From contig JBHPCH010000003.1 in NCBI GenBank assembly GCA_042576125.1, forward strand, positions 1 through 49,527: 49,527 nucleotides of DNA. The letters are read 5' to 3'. The notes under the pieces are model-generated. The model made no database searches. It saw nothing but the letters and a program-made list of their open reading frames with translations, and was not told the DNA's origin. Each line of letters opens with the position of its first letter. Within the stretch, counting starts at the first letter, position 1. This stretch comes from Thermodesulfobacteriota bacterium. Its GTDB lineage: Bacteria > Desulfobacterota > Desulfobulbia > Desulfobulbales > BM004. Made by a program: the position numbers and the translations under genes. Below are positions 5,706 through 17,254 of the stretch, one piece after another.

Positions 5706-6899
5706 ATGAGGTCAATCCGCAACCAACTGCTGGACATTTTTGAACAATTTTCTGATGATGATGCAGGTCTTTTAGAAGCCCTTCAAGACCTGATTACCAA
5801 AGAAGGGAAAGGGGTTTATACATTTATTTTCCAGATTCTGACCAACCTTGACCTGCCTCCCGCTGAAGCAGAAAAACACTGGCAACGGATCATTTCGAAT
5901 TGTAATGATTTAAGTAGTGCAATAGGCCGTGAAGTAAACCTCAGAACTGCTGTCTGTGACTATTTCTGTTCCATTAACAAATCTCTGCATAACCCTAAAA
6001 TTATTGAAATACGTCTTTTTGAAAAAGCTACAAAATCATCAACATTTGACAATCTTACCGGCCTTTTAAACCGCAATACTTTTGATGAGACCCTTCACCG
6101 TGAAGTATCCAGGGCAAAACGCCATGATTCAAGCCTGACTTTATTATTCATAGATCTGGATGATTTTAAAAATGTCAATGATACATTTGGGCATCTGGCA
6201 GGCGACGAAGTATTAAAAAAGGTTGCCCACCTCATAATGGTAGAAAAAAGATCCGAGGATATCGCAGCTCGCTACGGAGGCGAAGAAATAGCTCTCCTGC
6301 TGCCAGAAACCAGCAAAGCAGACGGCTGGCTGATAGGTGAAAGAATTCGAAAAAAAGTTGAAGAGATTCAAATCCCCTACGAAGACCAAAACATACATAT
6401 TACTTTAAGTGGCGGTATTGCATCTTTTCCAATTGATGCCAGCGATGATCTTACATTACTGAAAAGTGCTGATCTGGCTATGTACCGGGCAAAAAGTTTT
6501 GGAAAAAACAATATTTCCTTCTTCTCTCTGGACAAAAGAAGAAATATCAGGGTGGATTATAACATTGCCGTTGAAATCCAGGAACTGGGCATGCAGGTCA
6601 AACCGATGCTAACCGCAACAACGAAAAGCCTGAGCATCGGTGGTATATTGCTCGAGAGCCAAGGGCCTTTGGAGATAGGTTCTAAAATTCAGATCAACAT
6701 TACTTTCGATTCAACAAAACCTCTTCTTATAATCGGCACGGTTATCCGGTCAGATAAAACGGAATCCTCCAATTATGAGACCAGCATCGCTTTTCTTGAT
6801 TCTGACAAAGTGGTCAGAAATGAGATATCAAGTTACCTGATCAAGCATCTCAAAGAGCTACCCCCTGAAACCTCAGACACTTCCCAGAACCAATCGTAG
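5706..6899 (+). CDS. Diguanylate cyclase (GGDEF) with C-terminal PilZ domain
   Basis: DNLTGLLNR, DLDDFKNVNDTFGHLAGD, RSED I-site, RYGGEEI; PilZ RRNIR...SLSIGG; start may be TTG at 5694. Confidence 0.9.
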   Translation: MRSIRNQLLDIFEQFSDDDAGLLEALQDLITKEGKGVYTFIFQILTNLDLPPAEAEKHWQRIISNCNDLSSAIGREVNLRTAVCDYFCSINKSLHNPKIIEIRLFEKATKSSTFDNLTGLLNRNTFDETLHREVSRAKRHDSSLTLLFIDLDDFKNVNDTFGHLAGDEVLKKVAHLIMVEKRSEDIAARYGGEEIALLLPETSKADGWLIGERIRKKVEEIQIPYEDQNIHITLSGGIASFPIDASDDLTLLKSADLAMYRAKSFGKNNISFFSLDKRRNIRVDYNIAVEIQELGMQVKPMLTATTKSLSIGGILLESQGPLEIGSKIQINITFDSTKPLLIIGTVIRSDKTESSNYETSIAFLDSDKVVRNEISSYLIKHLKELPPETSDTSQNQS

Positions 6900-7209
6900 T
6901 TTATCAAAACATATAAAAATCCCCAATAAACATCCGGACTCAGGCGAAGGGATGAAAATAAATATATCCACAAAAAATCAAATTTTTGCCTTAGTCTCTG
7001 GTACAACCTCGAGTGCATAAAATCTTCAATCCGCCCTCCCCTGAATCATACGTTTGGAACGTTTACATAAACAAAAAAAATAGGTATTATTTATATAAAA
7101 AAAATCATAGAGCCATTACAAAAAAACAGTAATTGAATTACTATATGATGAATCAATACTAATATGTTTTATTCGTTGATTTTTACGCCAACTGTAAGTT
7201 TGATATAAT

Positions 7210-7695
7210 ATGCAACAACCAGAATTTTCCAAAACCTTTGTCAGGCCGGATGGTACAGCGGTCTTGACCTGCCCATATTGCTACCGGCAAAAAGAAATCT
7301 CGGTGACCTCTTTCAGGGGACATAAACACAAACTTAAAATAAAATGTTTTTGCAAAAATGCTTTCAATGTTTTTCTGGAATTTCGTAGAAGGGTTCGCAA
7401 AACAACACAACTGCCAGGAACCTTTATCAATCATTCACAAAATAGCAGCAGGTGCCATTTTTTAGTCCTGGATGTTTCTTTAATCGGTCTGACATTTTCC
7501 AGTTTGGATGCTTCCATTATCAATGAAGATGATGAACTTAGCATAGAATTTACCCTGGACGATGGGCTCTATACTAAAATCAGCAGAAATGCAGTTGTCA
7601 GGAATGTTCGCCCTGGGTCTATTGTTGGGGTAGAGTTTGAAATATCGAACGTAGTCGCTGGCGGGCCCTTGGGATATTATATAAATCATGGGTAA
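7210..7695 (+). CDS. PilZ domain protein with N-terminal Cys cluster
   Basis: CPYC...CFC, RRRVR and DVSLIG PilZ motifs. Confidence 0.8.
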   Translation: MQQPEFSKTFVRPDGTAVLTCPYCYRQKEISVTSFRGHKHKLKIKCFCKNAFNVFLEFRRRVRKTTQLPGTFINHSQNSSRCHFLVLDVSLIGLTFSSLDASIINEDDELSIEFTLDDGLYTKISRNAVVRNVRPGSIVGVEFEISNVVAGGPLGYYINHG

Positions 7696-7750
7696 GAAGT
7701 GATTTAATATTCCCAGAAACATTATAGAAAAAATCTATCTTAAAATAATA

Positions 7751-7785
7751 AAAAAGGGATTCAGCCTTAATGGCTGAATCCCTTT
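7751..7785 (-). terminator. Intrinsic terminator downstream of the displaced tRNA 3' end
   Basis: AAAGGGATTCAGCC-TTAAT-GGCTGAATCCCTTT 14-bp stem with T-run on the minus strand. Confidence 0.8.
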
Positions 7786-7793
7786 GATACTGT

Positions 7794-7850
7794 TGGTGCC
7801 CGGGACGAGAATCGAACTCGTACACCCATACGGGCGAGGGATTTTAAGTC
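7794..7850 (-). repeat. att site: 57-bp exact copy of the tRNA-Leu 3' portion
   Basis: Identical to 15497-15553 (TGGTGCCCGGG...ATTTTAAGTC); diverges just past the anticodon loop. Confidence 0.95.
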
Positions 7851-7987
7851 AGTCCTAATTTCAAAAGATATTATCTCTTTACATTTCCCCTAGTGCCTAA
7901 ACATATAGTTTTGCTAGTTAGTATTATCAGTTAGTTACGGGCTATTGTGCCTAAAAATTACAACCTTTAAAAAGGAATTTTAAAATT

Positions 7988-8224
7988 ATGATTATTCAAT
8001 ATTCAGTTAGAGCAGCAAATTCTTATGAGGGTGACATTGAAGATGGTCACCTTGTTACATTTGAAGATGTTTTTGAACAAGGATTTTGTGTTGAAGGAGA
8101 GAATATGACAATAGCTGACGCTTTAGTTAAAGCTGAAGAACATTTAAAAAATTATGTGGGATTAAAAATAATAGCTATTGAATTTCTCGAAGCTATATCA
8201 GACGATGCTAAAACACAAAACTGA
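7988..8224 (+). CDS. Hypothetical acidic protein (78 aa)
   Basis: ORF with AAGGA upstream; no motif recognised. Confidence 0.6.
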   Translation: MIIQYSVRAANSYEGDIEDGHLVTFEDVFEQGFCVEGENMTIADALVKAEEHLKNYVGLKIIAIEFLEAISDDAKTQN

Positions 8225-8370
8225 TGACGAGCGGTGCCTTTACACCGCACTAAGCGAGGAAGAAGTTTTATACTTAGGCACCTCTAAGTCTGTCCTAAAA
8301 AGTCAACATATCCACCGTACATCTTGATATTTTAAAAATGATTCACGACTGTAAATGTATAGCAGAAACC

Positions 8371-9624
8371 TCAATTTGAGTTTAGATAATCTTTAAACAC
8401 ATTATACTTCCGACTCAAATACATTGTTTCAGGTACATTATCATAAAAGTAGTGATATAGTTTAATGCAATCCTTATGGCTAACTTTGATATAATAAGAT
8501 GGTTTTTTTGTGCGATGTTTTCGATGAATAGTAAACTTCTTAAAACCAACACCATATAATCTATCAGCTAACTCAGTAATAAATAATTTTGAACCAGAAA
8601 CGAAATCTCCTCTTAGCTTATCTCTTTGTTTTTCAATGTAAAAAGAACCATCACCATCCCAACAACCTCTTATAAAATGTCTTAAACAGCAATCTGGAAC
8701 AATTGGGAAATTTACTGTTCTGCTTTTTTTTGTATGGAGGCCCAATCTTACAAGTTGTTTAAAAAGATGTTCACTTCTAATATTAAATCGATAGAGTTCA
8801 CCCGCGGTTATCTTTTTGTATTTTTTTTCTTCTGTGAAATAGAGAGTTGCATTAGAATCCATTAAATTCAAAACTTTTTCGAGCAATTCAGGCTCCTTTT
8901 GGCCAATCCCAAAACCTCCAACCGTATTAATTCTTTTAATTAAATACCCATCAGCATAAATTACACCTAAAACATATGCCATTTTAGGATACCAACTATC
9001 AAAAAAAGACTCATTACAGATGATTTTTTGATGTGTAACTGTAATAGTTTCGCCACTAGAGAGAGTTTTGTCGTGTGCTATTTTTCCTTTATCATATGCA
9101 ATAGTTCTGGCTTCTGATTGATTTCTGATTGGGATATTATATTCTTTTAATAAAAGCCTAATACCCTGAGCAGAATATCTTAATTTTTCACCAATCTCTC
9201 GCAGTGATTTACTCTGAATTATATATAGTTCCTGTAGTTGTTCTTTGGTTGGTTTTTCTCGTCTTCTCCTCTCGCCATATGTTGTTTTAATTCTATGATT
9301 TTTTCTATTTTCGAGTTCGTAACATTTTTCACATAAGCCCCTCGCTCTATGCGGCCTCTTTATTGTCTTGCATTTAATACACCTATCATGTTTTAAGGCC
9401 CATTTAGGTTGTTGGTTTGTTGGTTTATTAAGTTCTTTTTTGGAAGATATTTTTTGTTTTTTCTTTCTTGATACTTTGTAAACCTTTCCCGTAGGAACTC
9501 CGTCAGTTTGCGAAACCCTCTCTAAGTCAAACAAGTTTCCTTGTTGGGCTTTTTCTATTTGTTCTTGCTGAGCAATTCGCTTGATTTCAGCAATTATTTT
9601 TTCATAATCTTTATCTTCATTCAT
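8371..9624 (-). CDS. Free-standing double-motif LAGLIDADG endonuclease-like protein with N-terminal Zn finger and HTH
   Basis: AYVLGVIYADG and HFIRGCWDGDG motifs; CIKC...HRARGLCEKC; SLREIGEKLRYSAQGI helix-turn-helix. Confidence 0.82.
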   Translation of the reverse strand: MNEDKDYEKIIAEIKRIAQQEQIEKAQQGNLFDLERVSQTDGVPTGKVYKVSRKKKQKISSKKELNKPTNQQPKWALKHDRCIKCKTIKRPHRARGLCEKCYELENRKNHRIKTTYGERRRREKPTKEQLQELYIIQSKSLREIGEKLRYSAQGIRLLLKEYNIPIRNQSEARTIAYDKGKIAHDKTLSSGETITVTHQKIICNESFFDSWYPKMAYVLGVIYADGYLIKRINTVGGFGIGQKEPELLEKVLNLMDSNATLYFTEEKKYKKITAGELYRFNIRSEHLFKQLVRLGLHTKKSRTVNFPIVPDCCLRHFIRGCWDGDGSFYIEKQRDKLRGDFVSGSKLFITELADRLYGVGFKKFTIHRKHRTKKPSYYIKVSHKDCIKLYHYFYDNVPETMYLSRKYNVFKDYLNSN

Positions 9625-9781
9625 GTTTTGCTGTATCTAGATTGTGTCCAAATTCTGACGGAATACCATTACTTGCCAACATGTTGACCCTAAAATGAAG
9701 AATTACCAGTTAAGATGTGCACTGGCAATAGTAACTTGTTTGGGTGGTACTGTTAGTACAGATTCATAGCAGGAAGTTTGA

Positions 9782-10420
9782 TTATTTTTCGGTGAAAAAT
9801 TCACCATTTAGGTACAATTCTTTAAGGATTTCTCTGCCTTCCTGGGTAAATGCAGGAAAATGTAAATTCATCAAGAAAAATTCCATTGATTTTAAAATAG
9901 ATTTAAACAATTCAATTTGTTCGTTAACATTTTTAGTGCTGAGTTTCTTTTTTGCTTGAGACATAATCTGCTCGTTCTCTTTATGTATTGTATGAATCGA
10001 ATGACCATGCACTAGTTTATTTCGAGTTTCATTAAATTTTTTAATTTTACCTACTATCTTGTAATGATTAGATAATTCATTAAGTTCATCTATCGTTTTT
10101 ACCTGAAACCTTGTGAAATATATGAACATTATAGTTTTTTGGAGATAACTTACAGAATCAACATCTTCAATAATTTTATCATTTAATTGTAATCCTGCAT
10201 TATGTGAAATGCTTTCTTTGTCAAAACCTGGAATTTTTTGGACACACATAATGGGAGCTAGGTTTGAAAAAAGAATGTTTAATCCCAGTTCAAGAACAAA
10301 ATGTAAATTAATCAAAAGTTCAGCAGTTTCTGCCTCAGATCTATTGGATTTATTGAATAAATGAGTCACCTTATTTCGATATGACTGTAAGATTTGAAAT
10401 GAAAATGTTTTGTATTGCAT
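9782..10420 (-). CDS. Hypothetical protein, candidate HEPN-fold RNase
   Basis: Helical-looking 212 aa protein with RNKLVH (R-x4-H) and upstream LHFVLE; fold assignment is inference. Confidence 0.5.
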   Translation of the reverse strand: MQYKTFSFQILQSYRNKVTHLFNKSNRSEAETAELLINLHFVLELGLNILFSNLAPIMCVQKIPGFDKESISHNAGLQLNDKIIEDVDSVSYLQKTIMFIYFTRFQVKTIDELNELSNHYKIVGKIKKFNETRNKLVHGHSIHTIHKENEQIMSQAKKKLSTKNVNEQIELFKSILKSMEFFLMNLHFPAFTQEGREILKELYLNGEFFTEK

Positions 10421-10733
10421 AATTTCCGGTATATCGTGATATTCCTACATTAAAACATACTTGCCATTGTCTGTAGTGATCTGAACACTCAGGCCACTTA
10501 ATGTTTCTATATGTTAGCTTGAATTTCAAAAGTAAAGATTACTTGCCAACATATTCAGTTTTAATTCACTCGAACAGATTGAAGATGGACAGTGGACATC
10601 TTAACCCTGCCTCAAAGTGTTGCCAACAAAATTCAATTAGCGCATTTATTGCAACTTTAGGTATGCGTGAGCCACGCAGTGTCTCCCGCATACCGGATTG
10701 CCATTAAAAAAATTATACCCAACACAAACTTTG

Positions 10734-10773
10734 GTTGACAATTGTAAACTTTTTTAGTTGACAACCGTCAACT
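10734..10773 (+). promoter_or_regulatory. Tandem palindromic operators overlapping TTGACA boxes
   Basis: GTTGAC-AATT-GTAAAC (10734-49) and AGTTGAC-AACC-GTCAACT (10756-73) upstream of the HTH gene. Confidence 0.6.
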
Positions 10774-10821
10774 GATTGTTTATGAAAAAATAAATTGAAT
10801 TTCTGTGTGAGGTTTAAAGAT

Positions 10822-11304
10822 ATGGAGAAAAATTTTCCATTTATAAAAATCCCAAAGCGTTTTCAAGAAATTATAGGAAAGCCCATTCCAAACACAAGAT
10901 TATATCGGGCAGTTGGAACTAGAGAAGATATGATTGAATGGGTTTCAGCGGTGAATAATATTTGCGGGGATGAGGGGCATATTTCACCAGGTGGGATTGC
11001 TGCTATGGTAGGTGTTTCACGTGCAGCAGTACACAAACGTATGAAGACTGGAGGGTTAACGGCATTTAATTTTTATTTGGTAAAAGAAGTAAAAATTTTA
11101 TTTAAATTTAAAACTCTTGATGAGTGGTGCCCAAGACCTAGCATCTGTGTAATACCCACAAGTGAAAGTATTGCATGGAGATCTGAACTTATAAAAAGAC
11201 GAAAAGTAAAAAATATTCAAGAAGAAGATAATGTAACTGAAAAAGATTGGGACGATGATTTTTTGAATGTCCCAAAGGATTGGAGGAAAACATTTAACCC
11301 ATAA
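10822..11304 (+). CDS. HTH DNA-binding protein (putative element regulator)
   Basis: SPGGIAAMVGVSRAAVHKRMKTG helix-turn-helix; GAGG upstream of ATG 10822. Confidence 0.65.
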   Translation: MEKNFPFIKIPKRFQEIIGKPIPNTRLYRAVGTREDMIEWVSAVNNICGDEGHISPGGIAAMVGVSRAAVHKRMKTGGLTAFNFYLVKEVKILFKFKTLDEWCPRPSICVIPTSESIAWRSELIKRRKVKNIQEEDNVTEKDWDDDFLNVPKDWRKTFNP

Positions 11305-11396
11305 ATAGAAGCGGCCCCTCTCTGTCTGGATCAACTTTGGCGGTAGACCAGAAGGAGGGGCCAATCCCATAAACCCTTCGCAGGAGTAAACAGGAC

Positions 11397-12599
11397 ATGA
11401 AGAAGATAAAACCTTCCAACAAGTCTGTCAATCATTCAACCTCAACCGAAGACTCCCCTCCCCCATCAAGTATAACATGGGGGGGTGAAATCTTATCTCC
11501 ACCTATTCGAAGCCACCCGAACATAGATACTTTGCATTTTGGTCTGTTCGTGTCGTGGTCTAGTGATAGGCTATTATTACAGCTTGAAACTTTAAAAGAT
11601 CAGGCGAGAGAAAACGATTTCAATCCAGTTCCATTACAAATTCCTGGAACAAATATGGAATTTGTCGTTTCTCCCTATGGGAAAAAAGGTGGTTATGCTT
11701 TTTCAATAATATCTGCTGATGTTGTTTTATTTTTTTCTCGCCATGATCCAGGCGGTAACACTCCAAATGTTTTTGTAGAAATTGGCTCGGTTTCTTGTTG
11801 GTCGTCTGGTATTAATTCTGTCGTAAAAAACATATACCGGCTTATTGAATTTTTTGGTGGTCGTGTAATTAAGGAAAATCTGAACCGAATAGATATGGCT
11901 GTAGATTTTGTCGGCCTTGATATTAAGACTTTGCCCCTGGACGATGTTCATCTTTGGATTAAAAAAGCGCAAAAAACCAATATCTATTTTGAAGGCCTTG
12001 AATTTTCCGGTGTTGTTTTTGGTTCTGGTGGTGATCTTTCACTCCGCACATATGACAAAACAAGAGAGATAAGCACTAATCCTGTCAAACAGGCCATTTT
12101 TGCAGAAGTATGGGGTTTGAGTTCCTATGATGAACAACCAACCACTAGAGTTGAATTTCAACTGCGTAAAGAGATTTTAAAAGATTTTAAAATAAAGACA
12201 TTCAATCAACTGAAAGGCAAAATGGCTTCATTGTGGCGGTATTGCACTGAAGAATGGAGTCGTCTTGCTTCTGCCCCTGTCGATCGTAACAACACTGAAA
12301 AATCAAGCCTTCATCCCTGGTGGGAAATTGTCCAAGCCATTAAATGGCCAGGTGTCCGATATATAAAACGAAGCAAAGAGATTGCCAGAAAAGCACTTGA
12401 TGGACTAGTCAAACAAGCTGCCGGCCTAGCTCTTTCTGCCGGTGCAATCCTTTTTCGCCAATCTGATGACATAGACGGCATTATTTATGCTTTCCAGGGA
12501 ATGCTTGAAGGGGAACTTCGAAAACAGTTCGTGTCTGATAATGCAAAATTTGTATCTAAATATTTAAGCCGTCGAGCAGAATGTTGGTGTTCTGTCTAA
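11397..12599 (+). CDS. Rep_trans-family rolling-circle replication initiator/relaxase
   Basis: IDTLHFG, LNRIDMAVDF, VFGSG..LRTYDKTRE, RVEFQLR motifs. Confidence 0.85.
   Translation: MKKIKPSNKSVNHSTSTEDSPPPSSITWGGEILSPPIRSHPNIDTLHFGLFVSWSSDRLLLQLETLKDQARENDFNPVPLQIPGTNMEFVVSPYGKKGGYAFSIISADVVLFFSRHDPGGNTPNVFVEIGSVSCWSSGINSVVKNIYRLIEFFGGRVIKENLNRIDMAVDFVGLDIKTLPLDDVHLWIKKAQKTNIYFEGLEFSGVVFGSGGDLSLRTYDKTREISTNPVKQAIFAEVWGLSSYDEQPTTRVEFQLRKEILKDFKIKTFNQLKGKMASLWRYCTEEWSRLASAPVDRNNTEKSSLHPWWEIVQAIKWPGVRYIKRSKEIARKALDGLVKQAAGLALSAGAILFRQSDDIDGIIYAFQGMLEGELRKQFVSDNAKFVSKYLSRRAECWCSV
11460..11486 (+). other. Candidate double-strand origin / nick hairpin inside the 5' end of rep
   Basis: CCCCCAT-CAAGTATAAC-ATGGGGG(GGT); resembles the C-run/TAACA/G-run nick hairpins of Rep_trans/MOBT elements (ICEBs1, Tn916). 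Confidence 0.6.
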
Positions 12600-12619
12600 T
12601 TTTTAAAAGGAGGTTAGTT

Positions 12620-12904
12620 ATGTATTACGTATGGTGTCCAGAATGCAATTTAACCGCTCGTTGCTCTAAAGATGAGACTGGAGATTACTACGAATATTAC
12701 GATTATTGCTGCAAGTGTGATGCGCAATTTGTTGGTTGGGAAGTAATTCAATTGTTTTTTCCAGAATTGCCAAAGCACCCTTTAATAAACCAAAAGTATA
12801 TGTTTACTGAAATTAATACTTCTTTCACTCCCTTAATCAGCTTGTTCTTCCAACATGGTTTAGACATTGTTGGTAGCAGTCAATGGGAACAACTTATTTC
12901 TTAA
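12620..12904 (+). CDS. Small Cys-rich (Zn-ribbon-like) hypothetical protein
   Basis: AGGAGG RBS; CPEC...CCKC. Confidence 0.65.
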   Translation: MYYVWCPECNLTARCSKDETGDYYEYYDYCCKCDAQFVGWEVIQLFFPELPKHPLINQKYMFTEINTSFTPLISLFFQHGLDIVGSSQWEQLIS

Positions 12905-12908
12905 GAAG

Positions 12909-13115
12909 ATGAATACAGGCACCATTAATCAAGATCAGCTGAAAGAGTTGACCGGCTATGAAAAACCTGCCGAAATTGCTTCCTGTCTATCACGGCAAGG
13001 CATTCCCTACTTTATCGGCAAAAGAGGCAGAGTTTGGACAACTCTTGATGCAGTTAATGTTGCTATTGGTGCAAGAAATAACGAGGATGGTCAACAAGAT
13101 ACTATAGAGGTTTAA
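12909..13115 (+). CDS. DUF4224 excisionase-like protein
   Basis: QLKELTGY....IASCL.RQGIPY..GKRGRVWTT pattern; immediately upstream of integrase. Confidence 0.8.
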   Translation: MNTGTINQDQLKELTGYEKPAEIASCLSRQGIPYFIGKRGRVWTTLDAVNVAIGARNNEDGQQDTIEV

Positions 13116-13116
13116 T

Positions 13117-14232
13117 ATGTCTCCTAAGAAGCGTACAAAGAATGTCAACTGGCCTGAATATGTTACAGAATCAAATGGTAGAATAGTTTACCGGCCAAGG
13201 ATTCCTAAAAAATTACAGTCAAAAATTGATACTGATAAATATGGATACTTAAGGCCACCTGTGAGGCTCGGCAAGATTGGTGATCCAACAGATCAAGTTA
13301 TTAGAGCTTATCTTGCTGCAAAGTCTGTTCTTGATTTTAAGAAAGAGCCTGACAAAAATACTTTGTCCTATCTATCAACTGAATATCAATCATCAAAGCG
13401 TCTTCTTAAATTAGCTCCAACAACACAGCGTAAATATGGGCAACTCCTGGAACAAATTTTGAATCATCCGATTAAGATTAATAAAGATCCTGCCATTTTA
13501 GGAGATTTAAAACCAGATCAACTGACAAAACCGATGCTTCGAAAAATAGTCGACAATAGACTTGATATGTATCGTGAGACAGGAAAGAAAGGTGAAGTCC
13601 AGGTCAATCGTCAATTTGCTGTTTTATCCTCAATGCTGACCTGGGCAATTCAGTATGTTGAGGATTTGAATATTATACATAATCCATGTTTTGGAATTGA
13701 AAGGATTAAAGAACATGCCAAGAGTCGTTATGTCACCGACGAGGAATATCAAACTCAATATAAGATAGCTGCCCAGGTCGCTGACTATTTACCGGTATTC
13801 TTTGAGCATGCTTATTTGTTAGCATCCAGAGGTATTGAAGTACGTTCCTTAAAGCTGTCTGACATTACGGAAGATGGATACAAGGTGCATCGTCGTAAAG
13901 GCTCAAAAGACAATATTATCAACTGGTCTCCCCGTCTTCATGCTGCGCATCATGAAGCTTTAAAATTAAAATCTAAGAGAAAAATGGGAAGCATATACCT
14001 TATCCCTTCAACCACTGGTCGGATGCTCACACAAAATACTCTTCAGGCTGCAATGCAGCGATTAAAAAAGAAAATGAAAGAAAAGGGATTAGAAAAGATT
14101 TACTGGACAGTACATGACCTGAAACGCAAAGGAATTTCAGATGCTAAAGACAAAGGAATTGGAGGACATAAATCGGAAGCCATGAAAGCAAGGTATGCTA
14201 CCAAGATTGAAAGTTTTGAACCTCCAGAGTAG
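13117..14232 (+). CDS. Tyrosine recombinase/integrase
   Basis: ASRGIEV (R), RRKGSK (K), HDLKRKG, GGHKS, ARY catalytic pattern; lies within att repeats. Confidence 0.92.
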   Translation: MSPKKRTKNVNWPEYVTESNGRIVYRPRIPKKLQSKIDTDKYGYLRPPVRLGKIGDPTDQVIRAYLAAKSVLDFKKEPDKNTLSYLSTEYQSSKRLLKLAPTTQRKYGQLLEQILNHPIKINKDPAILGDLKPDQLTKPMLRKIVDNRLDMYRETGKKGEVQVNRQFAVLSSMLTWAIQYVEDLNIIHNPCFGIERIKEHAKSRYVTDEEYQTQYKIAAQVADYLPVFFEHAYLLASRGIEVRSLKLSDITEDGYKVHRRKGSKDNIINWSPRLHAAHHEALKLKSKRKMGSIYLIPSTTGRMLTQNTLQAAMQRLKKKMKEKGLEKIYWTVHDLKRKGISDAKDKGIGGHKSEAMKARYATKIESFEPPE

Positions 14233-14360
14233 TAATATTGTTTATCTAAGCAATTGTAATTTTACTTTTTAAATTACTATATTTTTATATATTTATAAGT
14301 ATGATGCATTACATACATAAATAATTTATTAAAAAAAACATCATTTAGCCAAGGATAATT

Positions 14361-15386
14361 ATGAAATCCAAACTTCAAGTATTTATTTCTTCCACATACT
14401 TAGACTTGAAAGAAGAACGGCAAGCTGCTGTAGAAGCTATTCTAAAATCTGGACACTTACCTGCAGGTATGGAGCTTTTTACCGCAGGAGATAAAAGCCA
14501 ATGGGAGATAATACAACGTTGGATTAATGAGTCTGACATTTACCTATTGATACTCGGTGGTCGATATGGAGCCATCGAACCAAAATCAGGAACAAGTTAC
14601 ACTGAATTAGAATATGATTTTGCAGTTTCACTGAAGAAACCATATTTTGCTGTAGTTATATCTGACGAAGCATTAGAAATAAAGGTCAAGAATCTAGGAA
14701 CTGCTGCTTTGGAAAAGGAAAACCCGACTAAATTAAAAGAATTTAGGGAAAATGTTTTAAGCAAAATTTCAACATTTTTCAGTGATACGAAAGACGTAAA
14801 ATTGGCTGTATTAGAGTCAATTCCCAAGCTAGAATCTGAATATGAACTTAAAGGTTGGGTAAGAGCAGAGACAATTCCTGATACCAAAGCTTTGGCTGAT
14901 GAAATCGCTAAACTGCATACTGAGAATATAGAACTTCGAGATACAGTTTCAAAACTCAATGAAAAACTTGATAAAACAAAGAAAAAAAGACCATCGTCTG
15001 ATAAAGAATTTGAAGAAATATGGGAAATTTTAAAAAATAAACAAATTAGTATTACTGGAATAAAAAAAGATCTACCAAATGCTTCAGAATTACCTGAAAC
15101 AATAGACGCACTGAGTCTAGCTATTTCGTTTCGGGATATGCTTTTACGTGGTGTCACTAATAAAATAGATATCGGTGAGGTAGAGAGCTTTGCATTTTTT
15201 ACATTATGCCCAGTACTACAAGTCCACGATCTTGTATTAAATGAAAAAGTACCTAGCGTTAGATATCGTCGTTATGCAATAACAAAAAAGGGTGTGCAGT
15301 TTTTTGCATACTTGGATCGGAAAGAATTTAATGAGGGTAAAGATATAAAGGAGCCTACCCAAAATCAGACAAAGAAAAAAAGGTGA
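14361..15386 (+). CDS. DUF4062 domain protein with coiled coil
   Basis: QVFISSTYLDLKEERQAA, SDIYLLILGGRYG, SYTELEYDFA. Confidence 0.88.
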   Translation: MKSKLQVFISSTYLDLKEERQAAVEAILKSGHLPAGMELFTAGDKSQWEIIQRWINESDIYLLILGGRYGAIEPKSGTSYTELEYDFAVSLKKPYFAVVISDEALEIKVKNLGTAALEKENPTKLKEFRENVLSKISTFFSDTKDVKLAVLESIPKLESEYELKGWVRAETIPDTKALADEIAKLHTENIELRDTVSKLNEKLDKTKKKRPSSDKEFEEIWEILKNKQISITGIKKDLPNASELPETIDALSLAISFRDMLLRGVTNKIDIGEVESFAFFTLCPVLQVHDLVLNEKVPSVRYRRYAITKKGVQFFAYLDRKEFNEGKDIKEPTQNQTKKKR

Positions 15387-15455
15387 AATCAAAAAAATAA
15401 CGCGACTGAATTATTTATGTGCCTAAACTATTTAATTATGTGCCTAAAACAAACA

Positions 15456-15489
15456 AAAAAGGACCCAGCCAATCAAGCTGAATCCTTTT
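15456..15489 (-). terminator. Element-borne imperfect terminator after the intact tRNA
   Basis: AAAAGGACCCAGC-CAATCAA-GCTGAATCCTTTT, similar to 7751-7785. Confidence 0.55.
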
Positions 15490-15496
15490 CTATAAC

Positions 15497-15583
15497 TGGT
15501 GCCCGGGACGAGAATCGAACTCGTACACCCATACGGGCGAGGGATTTTAAGTCCCTTGCGTCTACCAGTTCCGCCACCCAGGC
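15497..15583 (-). tRNA. tRNA-Leu (TAA anticodon)
   Basis: GCCTGGGTGGCGGAACTGGTAGACGCAAGGGAC-TTAAAA-TCCC...GTTCGATTC...GGGCACCA; 87 nt, long variable arm, encoded CCA. Confidence 0.97.
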
Positions 15584-15886
15584 ACCGTGAGTTTTTCTGC
15601 GACTCTATATTATCATTTCTGAAAATGCAAACAAGATTATACTCAATTAATTCTTTTTTGAATTTGACATTTTTCATCAATTTCATTCGAAGAACAGTCA
15701 CGAATATACGTTAACGTATCGTTATCATTAGCAGTATAACTGCCTATACAACTAAATACACTTGACAAAGCAAATATTTATTTGTATCAGACTTAAATCT
15801 TAATATGCTGATATCAAAGTGATTTTGTGTTCAGCATTTGTGACGGGCAATGCCGTTTTATGTATCAATTTGGAGGTATTTTGATT

Positions 15887-16102
15887 ATGTCAGATCGTGA
15901 AACAGGAACAGTAAAATGGTTTAACAACAGCAAAGGCTTTGGATTTATCGAACGTGATCAGGGAGATGACGTTTTTGTACATTACTCATCAATCCGCGAC
16001 ACCGGAGGGTTCCGTACACTGACCGAAGGCCAGAAGGTTGAGTTCTCAGTTAGTGAAGGCGAGAAGGGTCTACAGGCTAACGATGTGACAGGAGTTGAAT
16101 AG
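15887..16102 (+). CDS. Cold-shock protein
   Basis: GTVKWFN..KGFGFI, DVFVHYS; GGAGG RBS before ATG 15887. Confidence 0.95.
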
Positions 16103-16131
16103 GAACTACATATAAATGTCTACAATTACTG

Positions 16132-16163
16132 AAAACCCGCCGGCTTTTCCGGCGGGTTTTTTT
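16132..16163 (+). terminator. Intrinsic terminator of csp
   Basis: AAAACCCGCCGG-CTTTT-CCGGCGGG followed by T7. Confidence 0.88.
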
Positions 16164-16267
16164 ATGTAAAATTATCTCTGTTAAAAAAAAATGTAGCCAG
16201 TTCCTCTGGCTGTTTGTATCTTGCTTGTGCACTCATTAAAATGAATAATTACATATAATTTAATGAC

Positions 16268-17254
16268 ATGAAGAAAATCTTAACCGGCGTATTTATATTA
16301 TTTATAATTCTTATTTACGGCACTTCAGGTTACATGTTCATCGAAAAAATGAACCTTACTGATGCTATCTACATGACTGTCATCAGTATCACAACCGTCG
16401 GTTTCAGCGAAGTTAATCCCCTTAGTACTACCGGAAAATATTTTACTGTTGTGCTTGTCTTTGGGGGAGTTGGTTTCTTTCTGTATATGGTCAGTCTTAT
16501 TACCGAAACCATGATTGCTGGAGGCCTGCATACATTTTTAGGGAGAAAAAAAATGGAAAAGAAGTTGAATGCCTTGAAGAACCATTACATAGTGTGTGGT
16601 TTTGGGCGGATTGGCAAGGTAATCAGCAAAATTCTGCATGAAAACCACCGGCCCTTTTTAATTATTGAAAACAACCCGGAAGAAATAGCTGTAATAAATG
16701 AATTGGGATATCTTGTCCTTGATGGTGATTCAACCAATGATGATATGCTGAAAAAGGCCCATATCTTGGATGCCAGGGCCCTGATAGCCGTCACCAGTTC
16801 AGACGCCGACAATGTCTATGTTATCCTTTCAGCCAAAGGTCTTAAACCTGATATCTATATTCTTGCCAGATCAAGCGGCAAAAAAGGTGCCGAAACAAAA
16901 CTGTTGCGCGCCGGTGCCAACAAGGTTTTTTCTCCTTATGAAATAGGCGCAAGAAGAATGGCTCAATCACTGATGAGACCGACAGTAATTGACTTTATAG
17001 ATCTTACAGTCCACGAAGGCGAGCTTGGCCTCAGACTTGAAGAATTGCGGGTTTCAGATAAAGCTACATTTGTAAACAAGTCCCTGATGGATTCAGGTAT
17101 CCGGTCAGAGCATGACCTGATTGTCGTGGCCATCAAACGGCAGAAAGGCGAAATGCTGTTTAATCCTAACCAGAATACTGAAATCTTAACCGGTGATATT
17201 CTGATTGTTTTAGGAGAGCATTCAAATATCCAGGGCCTGGAGAAAAAACTATAA
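16268..17254 (+). CDS. Potassium channel protein with TrkA-N/TrkA-C domains
   Basis: TTVGFSE filter-like motif, HYIVCGFGRIG Rossmann motif. Confidence 0.92.
   Translation: MKKILTGVFILFIILIYGTSGYMFIEKMNLTDAIYMTVISITTVGFSEVNPLSTTGKYFTVVLVFGGVGFFLYMVSLITETMIAGGLHTFLGRKKMEKKLNALKNHYIVCGFGRIGKVISKILHENHRPFLIIENNPEEIAVINELGYLVLDGDSTNDDMLKKAHILDARALIAVTSSDADNVYVILSAKGLKPDIYILARSSGKKGAETKLLRAGANKVFSPYEIGARRMAQSLMRPTVIDFIDLTVHEGELGLRLEELRVSDKATFVNKSLMDSGIRSEHDLIVVAIKRQKGEMLFNPNQNTEILTGDILIVLGEHSNIQGLEKKL

Follow-up and report, generated by a model that had tools for sequence, protein, structure and literature searches.

A probable capsid-less integrative rolling-circle element at a tRNA-Leu gene of a Desulfobulbales bacterium and the host repeat that frames part of its cargo

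How does a small element that encodes its own replication and integration, and no means of leaving the cell, move between genomes, and where does it acquire its cargo? This question is raised by a locus in the window analyzed here, a stretch of 49,527 nucleotides from a Thermodesulfobacteriota bacterium of the order Desulfobulbales (assembly GCA_042576125.1, contig JBHPCH010000003.1, positions 1 to 49,527), in which an element is integrated at a tRNA-Leu gene. On balance, we consider it probable that this is an intact integrative rolling-circle element of a widespread family, whose minimal form is a regulator, a Rep_trans initiator (Rep), an optional excisionase (Xis) and an integrase (Int) next to a tRNA or transfer-messenger RNA (tmRNA) gene. 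The sequences contain a pair of attachment (att) sites, this gene set, a Rep_trans fold, an origin hairpin that covaries among relatives, and the family itself. The element is real and probably active, and we infer its route of transfer. Below, G000 denotes the host genome (73% complete, 2.5 Mb), other G numbers the genomes of relatives, L numbers loci and C numbers contigs. Publications are cited by identifier for those parts of their text that were accessible. The borders and the core of the element are as follows:

7794..7850, − strand: attL, a 57-bp copy of the 3' end of tRNA-Leu (repeat comparison)
10795..11304, + strand: helix-turn-helix (HTH) regulator (weak HTH matches, E = 0.005-0.2)
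11397..12599, + strand: Rep, Rep_trans rolling-circle initiator of 400 aa (fold, profile matches of homologs, conserved residues)
12620..12904, + strand: Cys-rich (Zn-ribbon-like) open reading frame (ORF), no family match
12900..13115, + strand: DUF4224 excisionase (DUF4224 E = 3.5e-6; PHROG excisionase 2e-15)
13117..14232, + strand: tyrosine integrase (PF00589 5.5e-7; phrog_1 1e-32)
15497..15583, − strand: tRNA-Leu(TAA), of which 15497-15553 is attR

The two att copies are identical over exactly 57 bp, mismatched on both sides and spaced 7703 bp apart. They reproduce the last 57 nt of tRNA-Leu(TAA), reaching from the anticodon loop to the terminal CCA, and the 3' part of a tRNA gene is the usual target of tyrosine integrases. 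A preliminary description of the locus had proposed exact 57-bp repeats and a predicted 7703-bp circle at tRNA-Leu; the repeats, their spacing and the tRNA are borne out by the repeat and tRNA comparison. An Rfam scan matched the tRNA only, and the GC content of the element is 0.354 compared to 0.438 in the genome. Near both borders lie copies of an 8-bp motif:

7893..7954, + strand: two copies (7893, 7947), putative integrase arm-type sites; a third copy is inverted at 8274
15419..15447, + strand: two further copies, kept at the same place in L037

Five of the 31 copies in the genome (2.5 Mb) fall less than 500 bp from the two att sites, and these copies are putative arm-type sites of the integrase. 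In genome G004, the genes that flank the element each adjoin one copy of the att sequence, on two contigs. Hence, the flanks of the element are host genes and the tRNA-Leu site is probably an integration hotspot. The core ORFs (HTH, Rep, Cys-rich, Xis, Int) are all on the + strand without interruptions. The order and the single strand of this run stand as first described; the HTH matches are weak, and the supposed Zn-ribbon ORF (12620-12904) matches no family and has no homolog among the fetched loci. The uninterrupted ORFs and identical att copies, previously read as signs of a recent or active element, were likewise found; neither an attP joint nor an empty attB was seen. For attB, the contigs of genus relatives end near the tRNA or hold other inserts. 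No attP joint or other joint across the element occurred in the contigs of four runs, in which the core had little or no coverage, so that this result is uninformative either way. Among public read sets, the best matches share ≤0.10 of the sampled words, and no RNA set is among the matches listed.

Rep itself scores below the gathering threshold of the Pfam Rep_trans family, its sole match being Phage_CRI (E = 0.016), and a PDB sequence search gave no match. Its AlphaFold model (pLDDT, the predicted local distance difference test score, 85.9) retrieved RepSTK1 (4CIJ, E = 9e-11) and RepDE (4CWC/4CWE) as the top Foldseek matches in PDB, and 11 of 25 Rep homologs match PF02486 at E-values up to 0.1 (best 3.5e-6). 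Across these 25 homologs D170, Y219, K221 and E253 are invariant and D44 is nearly so. Three acidic residues with a YxK motif form the pattern given for Rep_trans/MOBT proteins (PMC6499999); the residues were equated with those of RelSt3 by motif pattern, not by structural superposition. By its modeled fold and by its family Rep is thus a Rep_trans initiator, as the preliminary description had held and in spite of the Pfam miss. Matches among named phages are limited to the initiators of Thermus phages OH3/OH16, at 22-23%.

The predicted origin of replication lies within the rep gene:

11460..11483, + strand: predicted double-strand origin hairpin with a 7-bp G/C stem and a loop ending in TAAC, inside the disordered 5' end of rep

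Rep residues 1-34 are predicted to be disordered (pLDDT < 50) and Rep has no N-terminal HTH. Since the protein motif at residues 25-30 lies in this disordered tail, its conservation is explained by the underlying hairpin DNA. Of 142 related loci (L137-L216 entered this test only), 94 have a loop of the TA(A/T)CA type closed by a perfectly paired stem of ≥6 bp, with 34 different stems, compared to a mean of 0.57 and a maximum of 4 in shuffles; the loci are related and not independent. As the folding energy of the element's own hairpin is unremarkable (z = −1.0 and −1.5), the case for the origin rests on this covariation. ICEBs1 and Tn916 are described as nicked at CT'AA within a G/C hairpin loop (PMC9371924). 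The hairpin at 11460-11483, which the preliminary description had overlooked, fits this site and that of Rep_trans origins, and the predicted nick position follows the same source.

Single-protein scans for related loci were empty and alignment scans productive, yielding relatives from genomes (160, of which 80 were kept), viral contigs (16) and metagenomes (301, of which 80 were kept). After exclusion of duplicates and of Reps shorter than 330 aa, 93 distinct locus Reps remained. A pI/Zot-like ATPase is the only universal marker of inoviruses (PMC6813254). By this marker, 37 of the 93 Reps had a Zot gene ≤7 kb upstream in a typical filamentous-phage block, 34 had none despite a flank of at least 5 kb, and 22 loci were too short to call. 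The usual layout of the Zot-less loci is regulator-Rep-(Xis)-Int-tRNA/tmRNA with variable cargo, often with a ribbon-helix-helix (RHH) gene ahead of rep, and in several of them att pairs are ~4-10 kb apart (for example L089, 3.9 kb; L098, 4.7 kb; L076, 5.4 kb; L039, 7.9 kb; L020, 10.5 kb). The Int and Xis nearest to those of our element come from the Zot-less locus L037, likewise a tRNA-Leu element, whose integrase is 69% identical (pN 0.22, pS saturated), and a 37% homolog of its regulator lies upstream of Rep in the Zot-less locus L100. Rep was found in 10 of 60 relatives and in none of 18 from the host's own family; the closest named records are from Desulfobulbales, and P0001 is a close relative with 88% identity. 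Pairs of Zot-less Reps are under purifying selection, with dN well below dS (dN/dS values of 0.13/1.49 for L053/L058 and 0.18/0.83 for L017/L018), which argues for a family and not a one-off remnant. This recurring layout speaks against the possibility, raised beforehand, that the locus is a deletion remnant of a larger prophage.

In a quick Rep tree of 53 rows (L063 was excluded for its long branch; four of the 16 Zot-less rows, L022, L037, L067 and L089, have less than 5 kb of upstream flank) the Zot-bearing and Zot-less layouts are interleaved with six changes, and a single inovirus clade was rejected (approximately unbiased test, p = 2e-63). Inovirus Reps are therefore not one clade, and the Rep/origin module moves between the two layouts. 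Module exchange is also indicated by the different nearest relatives of Rep (inovirus L016) and Int (L037). In the distant half of a larger tree all 39 rows are without a detected Zot, although distant pI proteins may escape the Zot profile and part of the loci in this half are short. As to direction, the trees would fit loss from phages as well as gain by phages.

Several observations on this collection stand apart. Genome G020 (93% complete) carries four Zot-less RHH-Rep-Int elements (L017, L018, L021, L022) and no detected Zot, and at L058 (~5968-16904) at least four partial att-like tandem repeats surround a Rep-Int element, suggesting stacked islands. Filamentous prophages of Desulfobacterota sit at tRNA-Glu, tRNA-Pro, tRNA-Arg and tmRNA genes (L016, L023-L028, L033, L035, L040-L043, L045-L056, L060, L062, L065, L066, L069), and none of five tested L016 proteins matched NCBIfam. 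Seven of 23 tested cargo proteins of Zot-less elements match PADLOC; defense-like cargo includes SIR2-TPR (L020:3963-5798), a kinase and a PDC-M71B-like gene (L053:13525-16406), PDC-S73 (L091:11462-13741) and an RmrA-like gene (L037:5257-6384).

How would such an element travel? Int and Xis would excise a 7703-bp circle at the anticodon loop, and Rep would nick the hairpin within its own gene and produce single-stranded circles. Having no exit of its own, the element would most likely be carried out inside the virions of a passing filamentous phage with the same Rep/origin module, a route to which we commit only tentatively, and its cargo slots would be filled locally. Filamentous packaging is favored on two grounds: the replication module is common to both kinds of element, and an inovirus can package a plain rolling-circle replicon, in that case an ordinary plasmid (bioRxiv 2023.11.28.569023). 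Dependence on a helper would follow from the gene content, in agreement with the earlier claim that structural and transfer genes are missing. In six frames of the element there is no match to Zot, an inovirus repressor or RHH; a comparison with 876 ORFs of 48 Zot-bearing loci gave no notable similarity except to one Rep; no free-standing hydrophobic ORF of at least 25 aa offers a small membrane coat candidate; and the element contains no leftover of the genes for pI, coat, pV or inovirus repressor and no coupling protein.

Several points weigh against the proposed route and the family reading behind it. A helper Zot was found in none of nine genomes with Zot-less elements, G000 (73% complete), G020, G041 and G054 among them, and in one of 10 when a named genome that holds both types (L037, L040) is included. 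Zot-like genes occur in 6 of 61 relatives as background, so there is no helper enrichment in Zot-less genomes. No packaging signal was identified in the element. Its second catalytic integrase motif is HxxK-R instead of HxxR, with K at the usual position of the second Arg, and the closest Rep of known context is that of an inovirus (L016, 39%), as descent by loss would predict. Zot-less relatives also occur in Planctomycetota and Bacillota; in these groups the Zot profile may be blind and filamentous helpers are less obvious. Filamentous helpers may be transient. The first description's reading as a helper-dependent satellite or mobilizable element is partly supported, and with no helper found the transfer route is unproven.

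A different reading, which we consider unlikely, sees a self-maintaining cargo island that is moved passively by generalized or jumbo-phage transduction, vesicles or DNA uptake, while Rep merely stabilizes or amplifies the excised circle. The lack of a co-resident inovirus or VirB4 in the genomes searched would suit it, as would the small tmRNA islands without transfer genes that jumbo phages carry (PMC12595487) and the defense-like cargo of some relatives (L020, L091, L053), but it leaves unexplained why the Rep/origin module has repeatedly been exchanged with inoviruses.

It appears still less probable that the element is an integrative mobilizable element (IME), in which Rep doubles as relaxase, the hairpin is the origin of transfer and a conjugative element lends coupling protein and pore, as in streptococcal MOBT/Rep_trans IMEs. 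The hairpin does resemble the nick site of ICEBs1/Tn916 (PMC9371924), which is at the same time a Rep_trans replication origin and so does not discriminate. Streptococcal IMEs with Rep_trans and without a coupling protein exist (PMC5704250), and RHH genes, often relaxosome helpers, precede rep in many Zot-less relatives. On the other hand, Rep has no N-terminal HTH, the element encodes no coupling protein, and the Rep clade is common to filamentous prophages. PF03135 (VirB4) was absent from five genomes including G000, G020, G041 and G054, whereas TcpA and other type IV secretion systems were not searched genome-wide. MOBT-type mobilization, put forward at the outset on a par with satellite replication, is therefore the weaker of the two options. 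That the element is a degenerate, now immobile filamentous prophage that lost its structural block is very unlikely, for although its nearest Rep with context stems from a full inovirus, its Rep is absent from the 18 family relatives and the four runs gave no sign of excision (at little or no core coverage), it keeps no phage remnant, its att copies are identical and its ORFs intact, its regulator is unlike inovirus repressors and has its homolog in another Zot-less element, its Rep and Int have different nearest relatives, and Zot-less pairs evolve under purifying selection.

Comparison with known systems agrees with an integrating rolling-circle element. Pf4 and other Pf-type inoviruses and the Desulfobacterota prophages (L016, L023-L028, L040-L043) likewise have a PF02486-type initiator directly upstream of a tyrosine integrase, Rep directly before Int being the Pf layout (PMC4863604), and they share the tRNA att site, the Rep clade and the origin hairpin. 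Unlike them, the element has an HTH (or, in relatives, RHH) regulator in place of an inovirus repressor and no pI/Zot, coat or pV; of the features that define Inoviridae, initiator and att sites are present, and pI/Zot and coat proteins are absent. RS1 and TLC of Vibrio cholerae and pDolos are also rolling-circle replicons of similar size without morphogenesis genes. RS1 and TLC integrate through host XerCD at dif, whereas our element has its own integrase and excisionase at a tRNA gene and no identified helper or anti-repressor. RS1 is a related published precedent (PMC11389934), and pDolos does not integrate (bioRxiv 2023.11.28.569023). Streptococcus MOBT/Rep_trans IMEs and the relaxases of ICEBs1/Tn916 share the Rep_trans fold, the nick-site hairpin and a tyrosine integrase, and tRNA-Leu sites are known for streptococcal Rep_trans IMEs (PMC5704250); the element differs in having no N-terminal HTH, no TcpA and a Rep akin to Desulfobacterota phage initiators. 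In its workings the element resembles an integrating rolling-circle satellite or an IME, but inoviruses, MOBT IMEs and proven satellites each have defining features that it lacks.

The origin of the cargo is a separate matter. Cargo on both sides of the core, as initially reported, was found with two genes on the left and a DUF4062 gene on the right, and the left genes are framed by a host repeat that had escaped notice:

7988..8224, + strand: 78-aa ORF, no family
8301..8376, + strand: host repeat, sites 2+3
8371..9624, − strand: cargo 1, HTH/LAGLIDADG-domain endonuclease-like protein of 417 aa (PF14528 4e-8, phrog_4645 4e-35)
9661..9783, + strand: host repeat, full unit, sites 1+2+3
9782..10420, − strand: cargo 2, 212 aa, HEPN-like as a weak lead (HEPN_Apea E = 0.13, CARF-HEPN E = 0.004)
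10453..10606, + strand: host repeat, accessory module and sites 1+2
10712..10741, − strand: best sigma70-like match of the element (11/12, consensus match only), pointing into the two left cargo genes
11313..11362, + strand: hairpin between the HTH gene and rep (z = −2.5)
14361..15386, + strand: cargo 3, DUF4062 protein outside the repeat framing (PF13271 4e-30)

Cargo 1 has 791 homologs, the best non-self one at 46%, and the structural-atlas neighbors of cargo 2 are HEPN-type folds below the bar for naming; neither protein had a match in 18 genomes of the family. Promoter-like matches in the element are in total not above shuffles, and short inverted repeats at ~10733-10775 may be an operator. 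Next to the element, window positions 7210-7695 hold a member of a Zn-ribbon/PilZ-like gene family, also seen on C14 and C36 of G000, with several paralogs per genome in the genus.

The repeat came to light through depth peaks in sediment contigs at the gaps around the two left cargo genes. Its unit consists of up to three 29-bp imperfect palindromes (sites 1, 2 and 3) with a period of 46-47 bp, each symmetric as 11-7-11. Within the element, sites and genes alternate as 2-3, LAGLIDADG gene, 1-2-3, HEPN-like gene, 1-2, and the best promoter-like match is directed into this array. The host genome contains 75 clusters of two to three sites in ~36 arrays (for example on C78, C72, C137, C42, C38 and C101; L227-L246), comprising 27 full units, 32 clusters of sites 1-2 and 16 of sites 2-3; several of the 1-2 clusters are full units cut by insertion sequences. 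Shuffled DNA gave 0, 5 and 1 matches for sites 1, 2 and 3, respectively. Of 54 pairs of neighboring clusters 53 are co-oriented, exactly one gene occupies 31 of 39 intervals, and 43 of 49 genes are antisense. The framed genes, slightly lower in GC (0.42 vs. 0.45), are a mixed accessory set of Sel1, ankyrin and HEAT repeat proteins, cytochromes, transporters, an ars-type operon and many unknowns. Arrays are not enriched near tRNA genes (2 of 36 vs. 1.3 expected), and this idea was rejected. Of 13 genomes of the genus, 8 contain the two-site pattern at least four times, and none of 288 other genomes in the order has more than two copies; the repeat was in none of the Rep loci fetched by the time of the check. 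The element therefore most likely gained its left cargo genes here; they would be two single-gene units acquired through the host repeat system after entry into the genus. A second island (G000:C46:16217-17463; L239) with a P4-type integrase and a site 2-3 cluster 7 bp past its stop seemingly also has repeat-framed cargo. An IS110-family element (G000:C72:6866-7978 and nine contig ends) has all 10 of its detected left ends at a single base of site 3; it is a candidate for a bridge-RNA recombinase whose natural target is present in many copies.

The repeat seems to shuffle single genes around the genome, and the chance that it is a site-specific module system appears to us just short of even. 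A nearly comparable claim, quite conceivable though not the one we lean toward, can be made for a dispersed repeat resembling miniature inverted-repeat transposable elements (MITEs) or bacterial interspersed mosaic elements (BIMEs), which lands between genes near terminators and moves genes only occasionally as a composite. In Mantel tests the left and right halves of a full unit are coinherited (r = 0.61, p = 0.0005), unlike the two ends of a gene unit (r = −0.04). The central 7-mers on either side of one gene agree at 5.0 of 7 positions, hardly above the 4.8 of random pairs, and 7 of 15 cross-genome pairs have no site near the relative's gene copy. Two orthologous intervals (G005, G012) hold no lone target site, sites often abut terminator hairpins, and beyond XerC/XerD-sized genes no genus-wide dedicated recombinase was found. 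Against a dispersed repeat stand the consistent orientation, single-gene spacing and antisense direction given above and a 95%-identical 722-bp gene unit with different surroundings in G000 and G006, whose similarity runs from site 2 to the site 1 core; two other shared units break at the center of site 2. A single crossover at mid-site 2 for all units was rejected by a subtype test, the breaks lying at site 2 or the site 1 core. Genes common to several genomes occupy different arrays, the unit subtype that comes after one operon differs among three genomes, and lone site-2 copies adjoin terminators near tRNAs in G004. That the units are regulatory arrays is improbable.

Like integron arrays, the repeat places single genes in one orientation between repeats, with a promoter-like site upstream of the element's array. 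Unlike them, it has three palindromic 29-bp sites at 46-47 bp in ~36 dispersed arrays, no IntI (the best TIGR02249 match in the 73% complete genome reached 83 bits vs. a cut-off of 265) and no attC-type folding (z = −0.57 to +0.51 across six folds), and an integron/attC identity was rejected. IS1111 elements target attC, which the use of the repeat by IS110 calls to mind. In Acinetobacter pdif/dif modules, too, genes lie between short palindromic sites, also on chromosomes (PMC12907356). The sites of our repeat are 11-7-11 symmetric, come in twos and threes and are directly oriented. Orientation alternates among pdif sites. A standard pdif identity was rejected since 29-bp symmetric sites with a 7-bp center differ from the 28-bp XerC-6-XerD site. 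The arms nevertheless resemble the XerD arm of the genus dif-like site (5.2-6.7 of 11 positions vs. 3.0 at random), which has a standard 6-bp spacer; the match in the host's own genome (C91) deviates from the genus consensus and is doubtful. Across Desulfobulbales, an exact-pattern search detected a single-copy dif-like site in 17 of 61 genomes (L300-L316). Four tyrosine recombinases were found in the near-complete G010, so that XerC/XerD or a 278-aa XerA-like gene are candidates. The latter lies inside a G010 repeat array (L249:2116-2952; G010:C9), and recombinase matches of similar size occur in G005:C5.

Inovirus surveys start from the pI gene (PMC6813254), and elements with only Rep, origin and integrase are consequently invisible to them, whereas Zot-less elements are about as common as full prophages in this Rep family (34 vs. 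37 loci). The searched literature, with most subscription journals outside it, held no account of the Zot-less family in Desulfobacterota or of the repeat. With the predicted origin, replication and packaging of these elements become directly testable. The repeat framing the cargo is the more surprising part of the locus. If it is a cassette system, gene-cassette arrays could arise in a third way, in addition to integrons and pdif modules. In the most far-reaching combination, which we regard as doubtful, an undescribed site-specific gene-cassette system of a genus of Desulfobulbales-like sediment bacteria, distinct from integrons and pdif modules, made of triple 29-bp palindromes with XerD-like arms and present in dozens of chromosomal arrays, would have loaded two cassettes into a capsid-less rolling-circle element of a large and uncounted class of integrating inovirus satellites, and would thereby have given these genes a route out of the cell.

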